DNA of 64,000 nucleotides from a virus (taxonomy: Duplodnaviria > Caudoviricetes), in the IMG/VR virus record IMGVR_UViG_3300032004_000003, positions 3,965 through 67,964 of that record; one strand, written 5' to 3'. Positions 3,448-22,010 of the stretch are shown here, one piece after another. Every line of letters begins with the position of its first letter. Position 1 is the stretch's first letter. The position numbers and the translations under genes were made by a program. The notes beneath the pieces are model-generated. The model made no database searches. It was not told the origin of the DNA and saw only the letters and a list, made by a program, of their open reading frames with translations.

Positions 3448-4181
3448 TCGGTCTCGAGCGCGCGGCGCTCCTCCCGCCACCGCTCGGCGAACGCCACGTC
3501 CTGCCAGCCCGCGAACCACGGACCGCCCCGGGTGAAATGGACCACCGCCGGCGGATCATCCGGCGCCCGCGGCGAGCTGTAGCCCTCGAGCCAGTTCCAG
3601 GTCTCGGGCAGGCCGCCGATCTGCTCGTCCTTGAGCCAGGACAGCCCGTGCAGCCAACGACCCTCCTCGAGATTGACGCTCGGCGCCGACAGCGCGTCGT
3701 GCACGGGGTCGGCCATGTTGAAGGCCATGAACGACGACCAGTTCTTCCTGGGATAGGCCTGCTGCGGCTGCCCGTCCATCTTGGTGCCGCCGTCGGCCGC
3801 GATCGTCTGCTGGTGCTGGACGCACATCAGCGCCTTCCCGGGGTCGAGCAGCGGCAGCAGACCGGCAATGTCGGCCGTCCAGAGCATGTCGCAGTCGACG
3901 AACAGCGCCCAGCCGCGGTAGTCGTCGGCCCGGCACAGGGCGGGGACCAGGAACCGCGTGAACGCGAACGCGGTCGAGAACGGTCGCCCGTCGAGCTCGT
4001 CGACCATGACCTGACCGTCGCGGCGCCATTTGCGCCAGAAGAGCCCCTGCGCCCGCAGCTGATGATCGTCGAGCTTCGTGACCTCGAGGTCGATCGAGGT
4101 CCGGCGCACCAGCGAGGCGGCGCAGACCCGCCAGGCCTCGTGCTCGCGACCGTCGTAGCCGATAAAGACCCGGAGTCTCAT
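3387..4181 (-). CDS. GT-A fold glycosyltransferase (GT8-like phage family)
   Basis: MRLRVFIGYD..EHEAWRVC; STAFAFTRFLVP; FVDCDML (DxD); YPRKNWSSFM; VVHFTRGGPWF. Confidence 0.85.
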   Translation of the reverse strand: MRLRVFIGYDGREHEAWRVCAASLVRRTSIDLEVTKLDDHQLRAQGLFWRKWRRDGQVMVDELDGRPFSTAFAFTRFLVPALCRADDYRGWALFVDCDMLWTADIAGLLPLLDPGKALMCVQHQQTIAADGGTKMDGQPQQAYPRKNWSSFMAFNMADPVHDALSAPSVNLEEGRWLHGLSWLKDEQIGGLPETWNWLEGYSSPRAPDDPPAVVHFTRGGPWFAGWQDVAFAERWREERRALETDQTLGGAVATLLAGEEVAAE

Positions 4182-4846
4182 GCCGCCTCCTTCTTGCCGC
4201 CGGTTGGCGCGTAGATCAGGTCGCCGCGGATGCGCTCGACCGGGTGCAGCCCATGCGCGGCCATGAGCGCCAGCACGTCCGGATCTGGACCCAGATCCTT
4301 CCAGAACTCGCAGATCACCACGGGCTGGTGCCGCGCGAGCGTGGCTTGCGCCCCCTGCAGCGCCGACAGCTCGCCGCCCTGCAGGTCGAGCTTGAGGAAG
4401 TCGACCGCCGGCCGGGGCGCCAACAGATCGTCGAGGCGCACGATGCCGACCGCGGGAGCGGTGCCGTCGCCGGGGCCGGGATCGACCGCGCAATCGCCGC
4501 TGTTGGTCGGGCAGACGCGGCGGACATGGCCGACGCCCTCGACCGCGCCGGCCGCGGCGCGCACCAGCTCGACGTTGCCGATCTGCCGATCCGCCAGGTT
4601 GCGCCGCAGGCAGTCGTGGTTGCTCGGGTCGGCCTCGATCGCGACCACCTCGTCGAACAGCCTGGCGAGGCGCACGGTCCAGGTGCCGACATGCGCGCCG
4701 ACGTCGACCGCCAGCCGGCGGCGAGCCTTCGGCACCCGGCGCAAGGCGGCGTCGAAGGCCACCTGCTGGTACAGGATCAGGTCGCCCAGCCCGGCGAAGT
4801 GGGTATCGTTGTCGGGCAGCCACCAGCCCGCCGCCGCCTGCTTCAC
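4178..4846 (-). CDS. FkbM family SAM-dependent methyltransferase
   Basis: AVDVGAHVGTW; VVAIEADPSN; VRLDDLL; VDFLKLDLQGGELSALQGA. Confidence 0.9.
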   Translation of the reverse strand: MKQAAAGWWLPDNDTHFAGLGDLILYQQVAFDAALRRVPKARRRLAVDVGAHVGTWTVRLARLFDEVVAIEADPSNHDCLRRNLADRQIGNVELVRAAAGAVEGVGHVRRVCPTNSGDCAVDPGPGDGTAPAVGIVRLDDLLAPRPAVDFLKLDLQGGELSALQGAQATLARHQPVVICEFWKDLGPDPDVLALMAAHGLHPVERIRGDLIYAPTGGKKEAA

Positions 4847-17142: not shown

Positions 17143-18639
17143 TCAGGCGGCTTTGACGGCGACGGGCTTGGTGCCGGCCGGGACCGCCACCGGCGGCACC
17201 GCTGCCTGCCCCGGCCGCTGCCCAGGCACCGCCGCCGCCAGCATCGGCGGCATGGCCTTGGCGGTCTCGCTGTCGAGCTGGTCGCGCACGTCCTCGTCGC
17301 TCAGGTGGTCGGGGATCAGCTCGCCGCGCCGCAGGTTGTGCATCAGCACCTCCCACGAGAAGGCGCCGGCGTTCCAGGCGGCGACCATCTGCGCCAGATC
17401 CTGGCCGGTGAGGCCGGCATCGAAGAAGTCGGTGTTGAGCTGGACGTCGGCGTCGAGCGCGGCGGCGTCCTCGCCGGCCCCGGCCCACCACAAGGCGGTG
17501 CGCAGCGCCTTGGTCAGGGCAAAGCTGGAGGTGTTGGCGATGGCCGCCAGGATCGAGGTCTCGCCGGTCTGCCGCAGGCGCACGGTCTCGGCGGCCTCGG
17601 CATCCTTCTTCTGGCTTTCCAGGATCCTGCCGCCGGCGGCGGCCATGCGGCTTTCCAGGTGCTCGACCTGGGTCGAGAGCGAGCCGATGCCGGCGCCGCT
17701 GACCTCGAGCATCCCGGCCTTGCCCTGGCTGGTCAGCAGCCACGCCGTGCCTGAGCCGATGCGCCACTCGCGCGGCGCCGGGTCGGCGGCGCTGTGATCG
17801 TCGGCAACCCAGGGGGTTGGCAGGGCGACCATGTGCAAGGCGTGAGCCAGATCCGCCGAGCAGCGATAATGGGCGAGGTTAAGGTTGCAGACGTCGAGCA
17901 GCGGCGGCTTCTGCGGCTGCGGATCAAGGGAGAACGGGCCGCAGGTGACGAACGGGATGAAGTCGAGCGCGCGGCCGCGCCGTGCCGGCACGTAAGCGTC
18001 GACCCGGTTCCATTCGTCGCCGTCGCCTTGCTGCTTGTGGTCGCTCGGCTGCCACAGCTCGACGCCGTAGACGCCGTCCTTCAGCTGCAGGACCCGGAGC
18101 TGCCGCAGGGCGTGATCGCCGTAGCCGTCCTCTTCCGGGACGGTGACCTCGTCCTCAAGGATCAGCTGCTGCAGGAAGGGCAGGCCCGCGGCGTCGATGC
18201 CCACCGACCAGTTGCGGATGTGCTCGGCGGGGTACAAGCGAATGTACGGCCGGCCGTTCTCGCCCTGGGCCAGGTCGGTGATGATCCCGGCGCGGCCGGT
18301 GGCCAGCACCTCCTGCACCAGGTCGCGCGCCACGACATCGGCCGGGGTGCCGTCGAGGGTCAGGTTGTCGGCCCAATCCTCGTAGGCTGCAGGCAGATTG
18401 ACCGTCGGCGGCTTGCGGAAGATCAGCCCGGTCAAGCCGGCGCGGGTGCGCGCGACCGCGGCCTCGAACGGGGCGCGGGCCAAGAAGCTGCGGAAGTCGC
18501 GCCAGTCCTGGCCGCTGGGGCGGGGAAGGTAGGTCTCGCCCTTGGCCTTGATCGCCTCCTCGCCCTCAAGGGCGTCGCGGATCTTGGCCCAGACCTCGGC
18601 GCGATCCGCGTAGCAGCGATGGGTGTTGGTCACGGGCAT
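17143..18639 (-). CDS. Portal protein (DUF4055 family)
   Basis: YLPRPSG...FLARAPF...IFRKPP; KPPLLDVCNLNLAHYRCSAD...ALPTPW; LNTDFFD. Confidence 0.9.
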   Translation of the reverse strand: MPVTNTHRCYADRAEVWAKIRDALEGEEAIKAKGETYLPRPSGQDWRDFRSFLARAPFEAAVARTRAGLTGLIFRKPPTVNLPAAYEDWADNLTLDGTPADVVARDLVQEVLATGRAGIITDLAQGENGRPYIRLYPAEHIRNWSVGIDAAGLPFLQQLILEDEVTVPEEDGYGDHALRQLRVLQLKDGVYGVELWQPSDHKQQGDGDEWNRVDAYVPARRGRALDFIPFVTCGPFSLDPQPQKPPLLDVCNLNLAHYRCSADLAHALHMVALPTPWVADDHSAADPAPREWRIGSGTAWLLTSQGKAGMLEVSGAGIGSLSTQVEHLESRMAAAGGRILESQKKDAEAAETVRLRQTGETSILAAIANTSSFALTKALRTALWWAGAGEDAAALDADVQLNTDFFDAGLTGQDLAQMVAAWNAGAFSWEVLMHNLRRGELIPDHLSDEDVRDQLDSETAKAMPPMLAAAVPGQRPGQAAVPPVAVPAGTKPVAVKAA

Positions 18640-18749
18640 GGGCGCGTCCAAGGCGAAAGGATCGCACCTGGATAGAGCCGGGACGCGATTCAATCAAGCC
18701 GGGGGTCCATCCACGCCGCGTGGGGGGGCCAAGTCGAGCGCGCGGCGGC

Positions 18750-19652
18750 GCCTTGCCTTGCCTCGCCGTGCCTCGCCGGCCATGCCACGCCTCGCCCGGC
18801 CACGCCTCGCCCGGCCACGCCGCGCCAAGCCCGGCCTTACCGCGCCTCGCCGGCCGCGCCGAGCCATGCCCCGCCTTGCCGTGCCGAGCCGCGCCCAGCC
18901 TTGCCGAGCCCTGCCGGCCGCGCCCAGCCCCGACCCGCCACACCTTGCCGCACCGCGCCTTGCCATGCCGGACGCACCCTGCCTTGCCAGAACCAACCTG
19001 GCCCTGCCTTGCCACGCCGGCCACGCCCCGCCGCACCTCGCCGTGCCGTGCCTCACCGTGCCCTGCCCCGCCGCGCCGTACCCTACCGGCCGCACCCCGC
19101 CGCGCCGCGCCAGACCCCGCCATGCCTTGCCGCGCCTCGCCAGCCCGGCCCCGCCTAGCCCTGCCGGGCCCGGCCTAGCCCAGCCCCGCCGTGCCAAGCC
19201 CCGCCGGCCCTGCCATGCCGAGCCTTGCCACGCCCCGCCTTGCCGGCCGCACCCTGCCGTGCCATGCCACACCGCGCCGCGCCTCGCCACGCCGTGCCGC
19301 GCCCCGCCCTGCCGGCCACGCCAGACCGCGCCTTGCCCAACCGGATCACGCCGAGCCACGCCTCGCCGGCCGCGCCACGCCACACCGCACCTCGCCGCAA
19401 CCAGCCAGGCCATGCCGGTCCAGCCACGCCTTGCCAGGCCTCACCGCGCCATGCCGTGCCCGACCTCACCCCGCCTCGCCGGCCATGCCGTGCCGCGCCA
19501 TGCCCGACCTCGCCACGCCCTGCCAGCCACGCCGCGCCTAGCCAAGCCTGGCCAAGCCACGCCACGCCACGCCACGCCGGCCCTGCCAAACCCGACCTGG
19601 ACACGCCTTGCCGCGCCTGGCCATGCCATACCCGCGCCAGCCACACCACGCC
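18750..19652 (-). ncRNA. GGY-NN pentamer array (903 bp); predicted guide-like non-coding RNA array of 16 units
   Basis: Hand parse: 184 triplets (177 GGC/GGT) separated by 166 variable dinucleotides, one trinucleotide and 16 single-base hinges; counts sum to exactly 903 bp; starts 7 nt after the stop of 19660..20202. Confidence 0.85.
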
Positions 19653-19659
19653 TGTAGGA

Positions 19660-20202
19660 TCAGGCCTCGACCAGCTCGGGCGCCGGCTCCTCGAGCAGCG
19701 CATCGATCGCCATCATCACCTCGCCCAGGCCAACCAGCACCCGGTACCGCGCCCGGAACAGCCGCAGCTCGCGCAGCGCCTCGCGCAGCAACGCCGACTG
19801 GTGGCTCGGCTCCTGCATCGCCACCAGCGTCTCGCGGTAGCCGCGCACCTCGTCCCGCGGCTTGAAGCTGGCGTACACCGCCACCGGCTCGGAGCGCTCC
19901 TCGCGCCCGTCCTCGTGCCGGCGGATCACCACCACCCGCACCCCGCGCTGCAGGGTCTCCGCCTGCACCTCGCGCCAGCGCTCGGCCGCCACCGCGTCCT
20001 GCCAGGTGAAGGCACCATGCAGCTTGGCCTCCTCAGGCCGCGCCGCGTTCACCACCGCCCGCGGATCGAGCACCGGCGCGTTGCCCTGGATGCGCCGCAG
20101 CTCGCCCGCCACCATGGCGGCGCTCTCCTTGGTCCGCGGGAATCCTTTCTCGAGGGCGTAGGTCGAGGACCACTCGTAGCCGAGGTGGACGTCACGCGGC
20201 AT
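19660..20202 (-). CDS. Conserved phage protein (180 aa) between the RAMP-like gene and the array
   Basis: LDPRAVVNAARPEEAKLHGAFTWQDAVAAERWREVQA; start overlaps the upstream stop. Confidence 0.8.
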   Translation of the reverse strand: MPRDVHLGYEWSSTYALEKGFPRTKESAAMVAGELRRIQGNAPVLDPRAVVNAARPEEAKLHGAFTWQDAVAAERWREVQAETLQRGVRVVVIRRHEDGREERSEPVAVYASFKPRDEVRGYRETLVAMQEPSHQSALLREALRELRLFRARYRVLVGLGEVMMAIDALLEEPAPELVEA

Positions 20203-20896
20203 CCGCAAGGCGGCTCTCCTGCTCGATGTCGGCAACGATGCTCATCTCGGCCGCGGAGGCAGCGTGAAACCGGCCGTAGGTGCCATCCCGCTCAGCACGC
20301 CACTCGCCGATGCCGACCCCGAACCCGGCCGTGTTGATCAGGTTCATGATCTGCCCTTCCGACAACACGCCCTCGTTGTAGCTAACGTTGAGCCGCGCCG
20401 CCCACGGCCAGAACTGGCCCCGGTAGCGGAGATCCGCGGTGCCCATGCCGACGCGCACCATGTCCTCGCGCATCTCCGGCTCGCCGGCGATGATCCGCAC
20501 CAAATCGTAGCGCGCCTCCATGCGCCGGCCGTTGTGCTCGTAGGCGGACGGGATGCTGATCTGCTCGCCGACGATATGGAACGCCTGGCGGGCGGCGATC
20601 TTGGTCATGTCGGCCACGGACGTGCAGGCGGTCACCGCCGCCGCCTTGAACGCGACGCTGGGGAAGCCGTAGCCGCCGCCCGGCAGGCGGTAGAGGCTGT
20701 CCTGGAAATCCTGCCAGGGGTCCTTGGCCTCCTTCGCGCCCTTGGCGACCTTCATTTGCTTGCCGAGCATCTCGAGCTTGGCCTTCTGCGACCAGGCGTG
20801 AACGATCAACGGGCTGGCGCCGAGGACGGCCACCTCCATGGTTCTGATGCGCAGTTCCGGAACGACAACGGACGTGGTAGCGGCTTTGACGGCCAT
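20192..20896 (-). CDS. RAMP/Cas7-like RRM-fold protein (234 aa), putative guide-RNA-binding effector
   Basis: AGGAG RBS; N-terminal VLGASPLIVH, central YGFPSVAFKAA and C-terminal Gly-rich loop GFGVGIGEWRAERDGTYGRF match the three RAMP (Csm3/Cmr/Cas7-group) motifs in order. Confidence 0.75.
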   Translation of the reverse strand: MAVKAATTSVVVPELRIRTMEVAVLGASPLIVHAWSQKAKLEMLGKQMKVAKGAKEAKDPWQDFQDSLYRLPGGGYGFPSVAFKAAAVTACTSVADMTKIAARQAFHIVGEQISIPSAYEHNGRRMEARYDLVRIIAGEPEMREDMVRVGMGTADLRYRGQFWPWAARLNVSYNEGVLSEGQIMNLINTAGFGVGIGEWRAERDGTYGRFHAASAAEMSIVADIEQESRLADAA

Positions 20897-20970
20897 GCGG
20901 CGAGGCTCCTTCTCGCTTAGCGTGGGGGCGGCGCGTGTGGTGCCAGCACGCGCGTCGCCCATCCATGATC

Positions 20971-21026
20971 TGGTCAGATTGTGGCTGACCAAGACTATCG
21001 CTTAGCAGCCCACCGGTTGGCGTCAA
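20971..21026 (-). promoter_or_regulatory. Sigma70-like promoter and palindromic operator candidate for the RAMP cassette
   Basis: Minus strand TTGACG (21026-21021) then GCTAAG/TAAGCG -10 region about 16 nt downstream; inverted repeat TGGTCAG-N7-CTGACCA at 20971-20991. Confidence 0.55.
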
Positions 21027-21082
21027 TAGCAGATGAGGACAGGCGGGTCCGAGCCGGGATCGGGCGCGTCGTCGCTCATGAC

Positions 21083-22010
21083 GCCGCGCCGCCTGCCGGC
21101 CCTCCAGGGCCGCTCACCGCGGCGGCTCCTCTTCCAGCCGCGGGTCCCACTTCTTTTTCTCGATCGCCTCGGCCAGGACCTCGGCCGGATCCCTGCCTTT
21201 GGTGACAACCTGCCAATGCAGCGAGGACACCGCCATCCCGACCCGTTTCGCCCAGGCGTTCATGCTCATGGTCTCGCCGCGGAAGGTGATCTTCGACCGC
21301 GTCAGCTCCCGAGCAGGCTCGGTCAGCGCCCGCTCCACGGGCCAGCCCAGCTTGTCGAGCCGGTGGAGAAGCAACGGCACCGAGATGCCGATACGTTCCG
21401 CCCAGTGGGTGAGAACCAGGGTCTGGCCACGGAAGGTGAGCAGCCGGTTGTTGCGCTTGTTGGTCGCCTGCTCGTGCATCGGGATCCAGACGCAGTTGCC
21501 GGGCTCGTAGTGGCCGTTCACGTCGAGCCGCTCGATGCTGTAACGACCCTTCTTCGGCCGCTCGCCCATGTCGGCGAGGAAGTTCGCGAAGCTCTTGCGC
21601 CACCGCTCGCAGACCTCGATCCCGCGACCGCCGTAATCGGCATAGTACTTGTTGTTGGGATTGGTGCAGCGGTCGATCATGCCCCGCAAGGTGAGGTATT
21701 CTGGCGTTGTCTCTCCTCGCTTGCTGGCCCCATGCTTGGTGTTTCGGGCCATTCGTTGATCCCGGTCCAGGCAACCACAGCTTTTCGTGTGGCCCGAGCG
21801 GAGCGCGCCGGCCCAGACGATCACCTCCTCGCCGCAGTCGCACCGGCAACTCCACGTGACCTTGGTCTCGCCCCCGGTTTGCGCGGTGCCGGCACGGTTG
21901 AGCACCGTGAGCCGACCGAACCGCTGGCCGGTGAGATCGATGAATGCGGGCATGGCGGCTCCTCATCGGTCACGGCCGCGCCGCCCCCTGCCGGCCCTCC
22001 AGCGTGCTCA
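21083..22010. repeat. Imperfect direct repeats (21083-21116 and 21975-22010) flanking the HNH gene
   Basis: Exact shared blocks gccgcgccgcc and cctgccggccctccag. Confidence 0.7.
21114..21953 (-). CDS. HNH homing endonuclease-like protein
   Basis: DLTGQRFGRLTV; WSCRCDCG; LRSGHTKSCGC; YGGRGIEVCERW; SIERLDVNGHYEPGNCVW. Confidence 0.9.
   Translation of the reverse strand: MPAFIDLTGQRFGRLTVLNRAGTAQTGGETKVTWSCRCDCGEEVIVWAGALRSGHTKSCGCLDRDQRMARNTKHGASKRGETTPEYLTLRGMIDRCTNPNNKYYADYGGRGIEVCERWRKSFANFLADMGERPKKGRYSIERLDVNGHYEPGNCVWIPMHEQATNKRNNRLLTFRGQTLVLTHWAERIGISVPLLLHRLDKLGWPVERALTEPARELTRSKITFRGETMSMNAWAKRVGMAVSSLHWQVVTKGRDPAEVLAEAIEKKKWDPRLEEEPPR

Follow-up and report, generated by a model that had tools for sequence, protein, structure and literature searches.

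The 903-bp tract described here is almost certainly a guide-RNA (vrRNA) array of a phage VIPR system, and the fuller statement, that it is a VIPR array whose hinges separate approximately 16 guides, is in our judgment quite probable. The tract lies within a 64,000-nucleotide stretch of DNA (hereafter called the window) that is part of a 67,964-bp IMG/VR virus record with a GC content of 71%. A first-pass annotation of this DNA had proposed that the tract encodes a precursor with about 16 distinct guides of approximately 40-75 nt that are bound as protein filaments. This proposal fits the VIPR system described in 2026, and it also fits the presence of a Vipr homologue that is encoded two genes upstream on the same strand. 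The window contains a GGY/NN tract, an adjacent vipr RAMP gene on the same strand, the RNA contact residues of the encoded protein, and an accessory vap-like gene, all of which are features of VIPR. VIPR itself has already been described, and the locus in the window is a further, unusually long example.

VIPR (Viral Interference Programmable Repeat) is an RNA-guided DNA-silencing system that was reported in 2026 preprints (10.64898/2026.04.26.720920). The Vipr protein is a ~20-kDa RAMP, and its vrRNAs are composed of 9-16 GGY/NN repeats whose NN bases pair with dsDNA, with a skip of 1 nt at positions that correspond to codon wobble bases. The targets are competing phages, satellites, and prophages, and VIPR loci exhibit no self-targeting. 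Seven types and several array architectures (staggered, ribozyme-separated, and single) have been distinguished (10.64898/2026.04.26.720920). Structural data (PDB 36pp) reveal that Vipr forms a filament with one protomer per GGY-NN unit, and that each GGY is sequestered by two adjacent protomers via residues H17, R138, D177, W178, and R179 in the SUSP1 protein (10.64898/2026.04.26.720927). This newly described form of RNA-guided DNA recognition has been proposed to be ancestral to CRISPR.

Organization of the array

The plus strand of positions 18750-19652 reads as (NNGCC)n, and the minus strand is an unbroken (GGY-NN)n tract of 903 bp. Within this tract, the start-to-start distances between GG[CT] triplets are 5 nt in 154 cases, 4 nt in 17, and 6 nt in four. 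A dynamic-programming parse yields 184 triplets, including 177 that are GGC or GGT and seven single-base variants, along with one 3-nt slot and 16 four-base units, which we call hinges. The tract begins with a 2-slot leader, which is followed by 16 units, and all 16 possible dinucleotides are present among the NN slots. The parse thereby reproduces the totals given by the first-pass annotation (184 triplets, one 3-nt slot, 16 hinges, and 903 bp). The array and its parts are as follows.

18750..19652, minus strand: vrRNA array of (GGY-NN)n form, 184 triplets and 16 four-base hinges, without a 3′ tail (very probable)
19639..19652, minus strand: leader, 2 slots, ends in the first hinge (GGCgt GGTgt GGCt)
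19579..19638, minus strand: candidate guide unit 1, 11 slots, first slot 3 nt
19525..19578, minus strand: candidate guide unit 2, 10 slots
19481..19524, minus strand: candidate guide unit 3, 8 slots
19422..19480, minus strand: candidate guide unit 4, 11 slots (first-pass parse: 12, end 19417)
19368..19421, minus strand: candidate guide unit 5, 10 slots (first-pass parse: 9)
19314..19367, minus strand: candidate guide unit 6, 10 slots
19245..19313, minus strand: candidate guide unit 7, 13 slots
19206..19244, minus strand: candidate guide unit 8, 7 slots
19142..19205, minus strand: candidate guide unit 9, 12 slots
19088..19141, minus strand: candidate guide unit 10, 10 slots
19019..19087, minus strand: candidate guide unit 11, 13 slots
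18975..19018, minus strand: candidate guide unit 12, 8 slots (first-pass parse: 9, end 18970)
18916..18974, minus strand: candidate guide unit 13, 11 slots (first-pass parse: 10)
18852..18915, minus strand: candidate guide unit 14, 12 slots
18778..18851, minus strand: candidate guide unit 15, 14 slots
18750..18777, minus strand: terminal unit, 5 slots followed by a last GGC, without a closing hinge
18640..18749, minus strand: spacer, 110 nt, from the array to the portal start codon

When the two parses are considered together, the units that follow the leader have 11, 10, 8, 11-12, 9-10, 10, 13, 7, 12, 10, 13, 8-9, 10-11, 12, 14, and 5-6 slots. For two of the 16 hinges, the position can be shifted by one unit. 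With a slash marking the break, the first of these can be read as GGC-t/GGA-cc or as GGC-tg GAC-c/, and the second as GGT-g/CGT-cc or as GGT-gc GTC-c/. The hinge bases are all pyrimidines in the first-pass parse (13 C and 3 T), and are T4 C11 G1 in the dynamic-programming parse.

The spacing between hinges is 10.7 ± 1.9 slots (CV 0.18), and the inter-hinge tracts span 7-14 slots, to be compared with the approximately 9-16 units of known VIPR guides. When the same number of hinges was placed at random 20,000 times, equal regularity was never reached. The hinge punctuation of the array is not due to chance. In agreement with this organization, Tandem Repeats Finder detects higher-order periods of 44, 59, 64, and 69 nt, each of which equals 5k+4.

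The units all differ from one another. The mean NN similarity between units is 0.45, compared to 0.46 for slot-shuffled controls, and the maximum is 0.67, compared to a mean shuffle maximum of 0.71. Thus, units that the first-pass annotation had described as all unlike are indeed no more similar than shuffled controls, and the guides show no sign of local duplication. The same annotation had named random hinge spacing and local duplication as the observations that would speak against its reading. Because the spacing is ruler-like and the units have no excess similarity, neither pattern is found in this array.

The Vipr protein and the accessory vap gene

Two genes on the same strand precede the array.

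20192..20896, minus strand: vipr, 234 aa from ATG, Cas7-like RAMP, SUSP1 Vipr homologue (from profile, fold, and identity)
19660..20208, minus strand: vap-like accessory gene, 182 aa, conserved beside vipr

The vipr ORF is annotated as phrog_4652 and has no Pfam family. A Vipr family profile built from 61 members matches PDB 36pp chain D ('SUSP1 Vipr protein') over almost its full length (E=2e-13). In the HMM alignment, the family G-loop GxGEWR corresponds to GVGDWR of SUSP1, which contains the G1, G2, and Y3 contacts D177, W178, and R179. Likewise, RYR of the family aligns with YRP of SUSP1, the invariant R159 corresponds to the thumb Arg, and H33 is located at the position of SUSP1 H17. R200 is also invariant in the family. 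Judging from this alignment, the residues that read G1, G2, and Y3 (SUSP1 H17, R138, D177, W178, and R179) are conserved in the window's Vipr.

An AF2 model of Vipr (pLDDT 96) was compared with the PDB by using Foldseek, and the top matches are all Cas7-family RAMPs with E values from 5e-6, including Csm3/Csm5, Cmr, type VII Cas7, and gRAMP proteins. The 234-aa protein is also 36-39% identical to the array-flanking proteins UmaThurman gp39 and Donkeykong gp49 of two actinophages. The family is very large, comprising >5,594 matches when clustered at 90% and 3,278 clusters when the identity threshold is 50% (E ≤ 0.001), and its named members are mostly alphaproteobacterial. A 191-aa ORF was also considered as a candidate for Vipr, but this was rejected because it exhibits no similarity to the actinophage array-adjacent proteins, whereas the 234-aa ORF does.

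The start of vap overlaps the stop of vipr by 17 nt, and the vap stop codon is located 7 nt before the first GGC of the array. Because of this tight packing, vipr, vap, and the array are likely to be transcribed from the minus strand as a single unit. An ORF of approximately 180 aa is the next gene after vipr in every close relative and is found in 27 further Vipr-positive IMG/VR loci, and it corresponds to UmaThurman gp41 and Donkeykong gp50. Its fold model is of low confidence (pLDDT 62, pTM 0.34), and its Atlas matches are solely viral hypothetical proteins or unnamed viral clusters.

The array sits between the 182-aa ORF and the portal gene (17143-18639; DUF4055, phrog_145), and all are on the same strand. 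Upstream of the 234-aa ORF are genes for an HNH endonuclease and for the large subunit of the terminase, and a MuF-type head protein is encoded downstream. The HNH endonuclease gene (window 21114-21953, minus strand; phrog_374/3377) is directly upstream of the cassette. Because it is absent from the cassette neighborhood in relatives, the protein is probably packaging-associated and not a vap product. There are no Cas families among the flanking genes, and no prophage relatives of the portal protein were found. An Rfam scan of the whole window at the gathering threshold gave zero matches, including none to hammerhead ribozymes between the candidate guides. No sigma-70 promoter or intrinsic terminator was found in a scan of 18400-21300, and the 110-nt spacer after the array exhibits neither conservation in relatives nor a consensus terminator.

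Related arrays and mobility of the cassette

A blastn search of GenBank phages with the region produced matches that are confined to the array itself. These are in Mycobacterium phages (Cheoctovirus, e.g., Donkeykong gp48), Gordonia phage UmaThurman (gp40), and Achromobacter and cyanophage records. The arrays of Donkeykong and UmaThurman are punctuated by GGC-A-GGC units, and the hinge base is always A. In GenBank, these two GGY-NN arrays (Donkeykong gp48, L002:2977-3363; UmaThurman gp40, L003:2986-3309) are labelled as hypothetical proteins. They are flanked by genes for Vipr (Donkeykong gp49 and UmaThurman gp39) and for Vap-family homologues (gp50 and gp41, respectively), and the gene order of both cassettes is permuted relative to that of the window.

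The vipr-vap-array module is also present in four other phage backbones (with a Mu-like portal, a podovirus-like connector, and others). Relatives with Vipr proteins that are 75-89% identical carry the same cassette in different backbones, with arrays of 539-1,932 bp that include 12-42 hinges and have NN content unrelated to that of the window's array. These arrays start directly at the vap stop codon or no more than 8 nt from it, and they open with a leader of 0-2 slots that is followed by a hinge. One such locus (L133:1752-3684; Vipr 89% identical) has an array of 1,932 bp, in which about 395 units and 42 hinges can be counted, and gene callers place ORFs of 262 aa and 407 aa on this array.

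Near-identical contigs (L128-L132) carry arrays that are identical to that of the window and are therefore uninformative regarding the turnover of units. One of these contigs, L129, has a diverged and shorter vap (168 aa) beside an identical Vipr and array. Its 3597-4195 region differs from window 19660-20300 by ~29 substitutions and 2 gaps that are concentrated in vap. Many metagenome contigs with this vipr (including L128-L132 and L136) end inside or just before the array, and 19 of the 21 metagenome contigs that carry it are under 5 kb. Such arrays seem to break short-read assemblies.

We also examined 120 IMG/VR loci that were chosen solely by the presence of (GGCNN)x11, which corresponds to eleven perfect units. 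An ORF matching the Vipr profile is present within the fetched stretch in 80 of these 120 loci, and wherever an array in a Vipr-positive locus scored well (57 cases), it runs in the same direction as vipr. The fetched stretches of the other 40 loci (L016, L019, L021, and 37 others) have no Vipr-profile ORF. These loci may be truncated, may encode divergent Vipr types, or may represent 'solo' arrays like those reported elsewhere (10.64898/2026.10.15.759431).

Hinges are present in 43 arrays of unrelated loci. When the inter-hinge counts of these arrays are pooled, the peak is found at 8-12 slots (110 of 194), and doubled hinges form a minor class. A hinge occurs at once at the start of the array in 17 of these 43. 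The first-pass annotation had defined the hinge as GGC-Y-GGC, and the pyrimidine does hold for its own parse of the window's array, but the hinge base in other phages is mostly A (184 of 237 in the pooled arrays). Because the base is mostly A elsewhere and is C or T in the window, the GGC-Y-GGC hinge is a feature of a clade and not a rule.

Comparison with known systems

The locus shares many features with type II VIPR, which is represented by Escherichia phage SUSP1 and a Pseudomonas fulva prophage. In both, Vipr is a small RAMP whose G-loop and thumb are conserved, it is accompanied by an accessory vap gene, the GGY-NN vrRNAs are on the same strand, each guide or putative guide has approximately 10-12 units, and the system is phage-encoded. 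However, type II vrRNAs have ~40-nt pseudoknot tails and are produced as separate transcripts of ~100 nt, whereas the guides of the window, as read from its sequence, would have neither. Instead, approximately 16 putative guides abut in one 903-bp tract with 4-nt units between them. Furthermore, the window's Vipr is related to the type II protein at the profile level only (the match with E=2e-13 given above), and its vap-like gene appears to belong to a different family of ~180 aa. No conserved structured 3′ tail, which is a type II feature, was found between the units, nor was one found after the array in five related loci. This absence excludes a layout like that of type II but does not exclude VIPR, because other architectures are allowed (10.64898/2026.04.26.720920).

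Among those architectures, the tail-less and hinge-delimited layout of the window fits the 'staggered arrays' as they are depicted in Fig. S18 of that preprint, in which the end of each vrRNA and the start of the following one meet at 1-nt overlapping positions (10.64898/2026.04.26.720920). As far as this figure goes, the grammar is the same as that of the GGY-N-GGY hinge in the window. What the current analysis adds to the diagram in Fig. S18 is the statistics on hinge spacing, the finding that the hinge base is specific to a clade, and the observation that arrays open with a hinge. In the preprint, confirmation by sRNA-seq is named for the hammerhead-interspersed and single-vrRNA architectures, and staggered arrays are not listed (10.64898/2026.04.26.720920).

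A parallel can also be drawn with Class 1 CRISPR systems. By analogy, RAMP-fold protomers would polymerize on a guide RNA whose bases are flipped out periodically, and in each case many different guides are carried in one precursor. Unlike Class 1 CRISPR, the window lacks long direct repeats and spacers, cas1/cas2, Cas6, and Cas5. The 5-nt period, of which 3 nt would be sequestered and 2 nt would be read, the predicted 1-nt-skip targets, and the location on a phage genome are additional differences. CRISPR direct repeats of ~25-40 nt with spacers are absent, and the array exhibits only the 5-nt period and the 5k+4 super-periods.

The trp RNA-binding attenuation protein (TRAP) recognizes sites with 9-11 (G/U)AG triplets that are 2-3 nt apart. 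The array resembles these sites in its RNA grammar of a triplet plus a dinucleotide spacer, and in the use of an oligomeric protein with one subunit per triplet. TRAP differs in that it binds a single regulatory site as a closed ring, its spacers are uninformative, and the protein is unrelated to Vipr.

Proposed function of the hinges and alternative explanations

We consider it likely that the hinges are guide boundaries. If the structures of the SUSP1 protein are a valid guide for this locus, then one Vipr protomer would occupy each GGY-NN unit, and adjacent protomers would hide GGY and present NN. A four-base GGY-N unit would break the 5-nt register, and therefore a filament presumably could not continue across a hinge. 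Each inter-hinge tract (7-14 units, 39-74 nt) would then give rise to a separate, tail-less guide RNP, and these RNPs might be separated by trimming or might persist as beads on a string. The NN bases of each guide might pair with the dsDNA of a competing phage, prophage, or satellite, with every third (wobble) base skipped. By the published rule, if it holds for this Vipr clade as well, such pairing would silence the target DNA.

The sole serious alternative is that the tract is a VIPR array but that its guides are not delimited by the hinges. Perhaps guides are excised by a ruler or in response to another signal, or perhaps the array serves as one long or overlapping scaffold, such that the 4-nt units are simply tolerated slips. 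This possibility gains some support from the irregular spacing in some relatives, including L134 (CV 0.69, not significant) and L133 (several units of 0-3 slots), and from the fact that 14 of 57 arrays of other loci have no hinge at all. Likewise, the word 'overlapping' is applied to vrRNAs in the preprint (10.64898/2026.04.26.720920). However, the hinge spacing in the window is much less variable than expected by chance and matches the known guide length. Moreover, a hinge is found at the start of the array in several clades, and the hinge base is uniform within a clade, as it is always A in the two actinophages. Moreover, if the published structure is taken as a guide (10.64898/2026.04.26.720927), each protomer of the filament occupies 5 nt, and a 4-nt unit should therefore not be bindable without a loss of register. 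Given these observations, we regard this alternative as unlikely.

It is very improbable that the tract is a decayed pentanucleotide microsatellite or a DNA element, such as a G-quadruplex tract or a packaging site, between the terminase and portal genes. The array does reside within the packaging/head module and has GG every 5 nt. In addition, the fold energy of its RNA is slightly below that of shuffled sequences (z = -2.96), but this reflects periodic GGC/GCC self-pairing and is uninformative. More telling is that the same type of array moves with vipr and vap into unrelated contexts, including actinophage early regions. Neither the lack of a duplication signal in the NN slots nor the ruler-like spacing of the hinges matches such an element, and among near-identical contigs the array is identical while the adjacent vap differs in L129.

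The least credible explanation is that the tract is a low-complexity protein-coding gene, as gene callers and GenBank annotate such tracts, even though a 344-aa plus-strand ORF (window 18623-19657) spans the whole array, single sense ORFs span both actinophage arrays, and gene calls are made over the array, including one for a 396-aa ORF on a near-identical metagenome contig. The conserved period is 5 nt rather than 3 nt and is reset at 16 one-base deletions, and therefore any fixed frame passes through all three phases. Stops within the tract number 4, 4, and 1 in the frames of the minus (sense) strand. Stops are rare because they can arise solely as TAG at an NN-G junction or from codons that begin with T after GGT, and the chance that a plus-strand frame stays open given three out-of-frame TAGs is estimated to be about 0.3. 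Indeed, the 344-aa ORF has no Pfam match and is an expected by-product of composition, and GGC is retained where synonymous Gly or Arg codons could vary. Automatic annotation would probably call this ORF (18623-19657, plus strand).

Composition and possible targets of the guides

The first position of the NN slots (N1) is G in 47% and A in 29% of cases. The NN slots are fit better by the sense codon positions 1-2 of the phage's own genes than by antisense, uniform, or genome dinucleotide models. This composition is in line with a wobble-skipping code.

A search for self-targets by the 1-nt-skip rule in the window and 126 loci yielded best matches that do not rise above those of shuffled guides. 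Exact-core scans with seven guides (seven scans of IMG/VR, one of species-representative genomes, and one of metagenomes) identified no credible target. Because an exact core match was required, targets with scattered mismatches would be missed. For guides 4, 7, 11, 14, and 15, exact cores of 8-10 slots searched against IMG/VR gave either no match or core-only matches with flanks at chance level, and guide 14 had no match among species-representative genomes. In JGI metagenomes, guide 9 matched one locus on three sibling contigs, with 10 of 12 slots matching in a bacterial GT11 glycosyltransferase gene. In this match, the skip base is located at codon position 2, and one of the four bases in the other two slots agrees. 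We judged this to be a chance match rather than a target, because about one random match is expected for 20 fixed bases.

Implications for VIPR biology

This locus adds a tail-less example of VIPR with 16 putative guides from an uncultivated, high-GC phage, and it provides numbers for an architecture that is shown solely as a diagram in the preprint discussed above. A caution also emerges for genome annotation, as ORFs are routinely called over such arrays and assemblies often break inside them. The vipr-vap-array trio in well-studied Mycobacterium and Gordonia phages offers an easy experimental system for array processing.

Tentatively, we also suggest that hinge-delimited, tail-less arrays might represent a distinct mode of vrRNA biogenesis, with Vap as a dedicated capping or processing factor, although we hold this to be somewhat less probable than not. 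By this mode, one missing base per boundary would break the register of the Vipr filament, and so the length of each guide would be set by RNA grammar, without a ribozyme, a repeat handle, or a tail. If this is true, then phages would be able to pack 16-42 guides into 0.9-1.9 kb.
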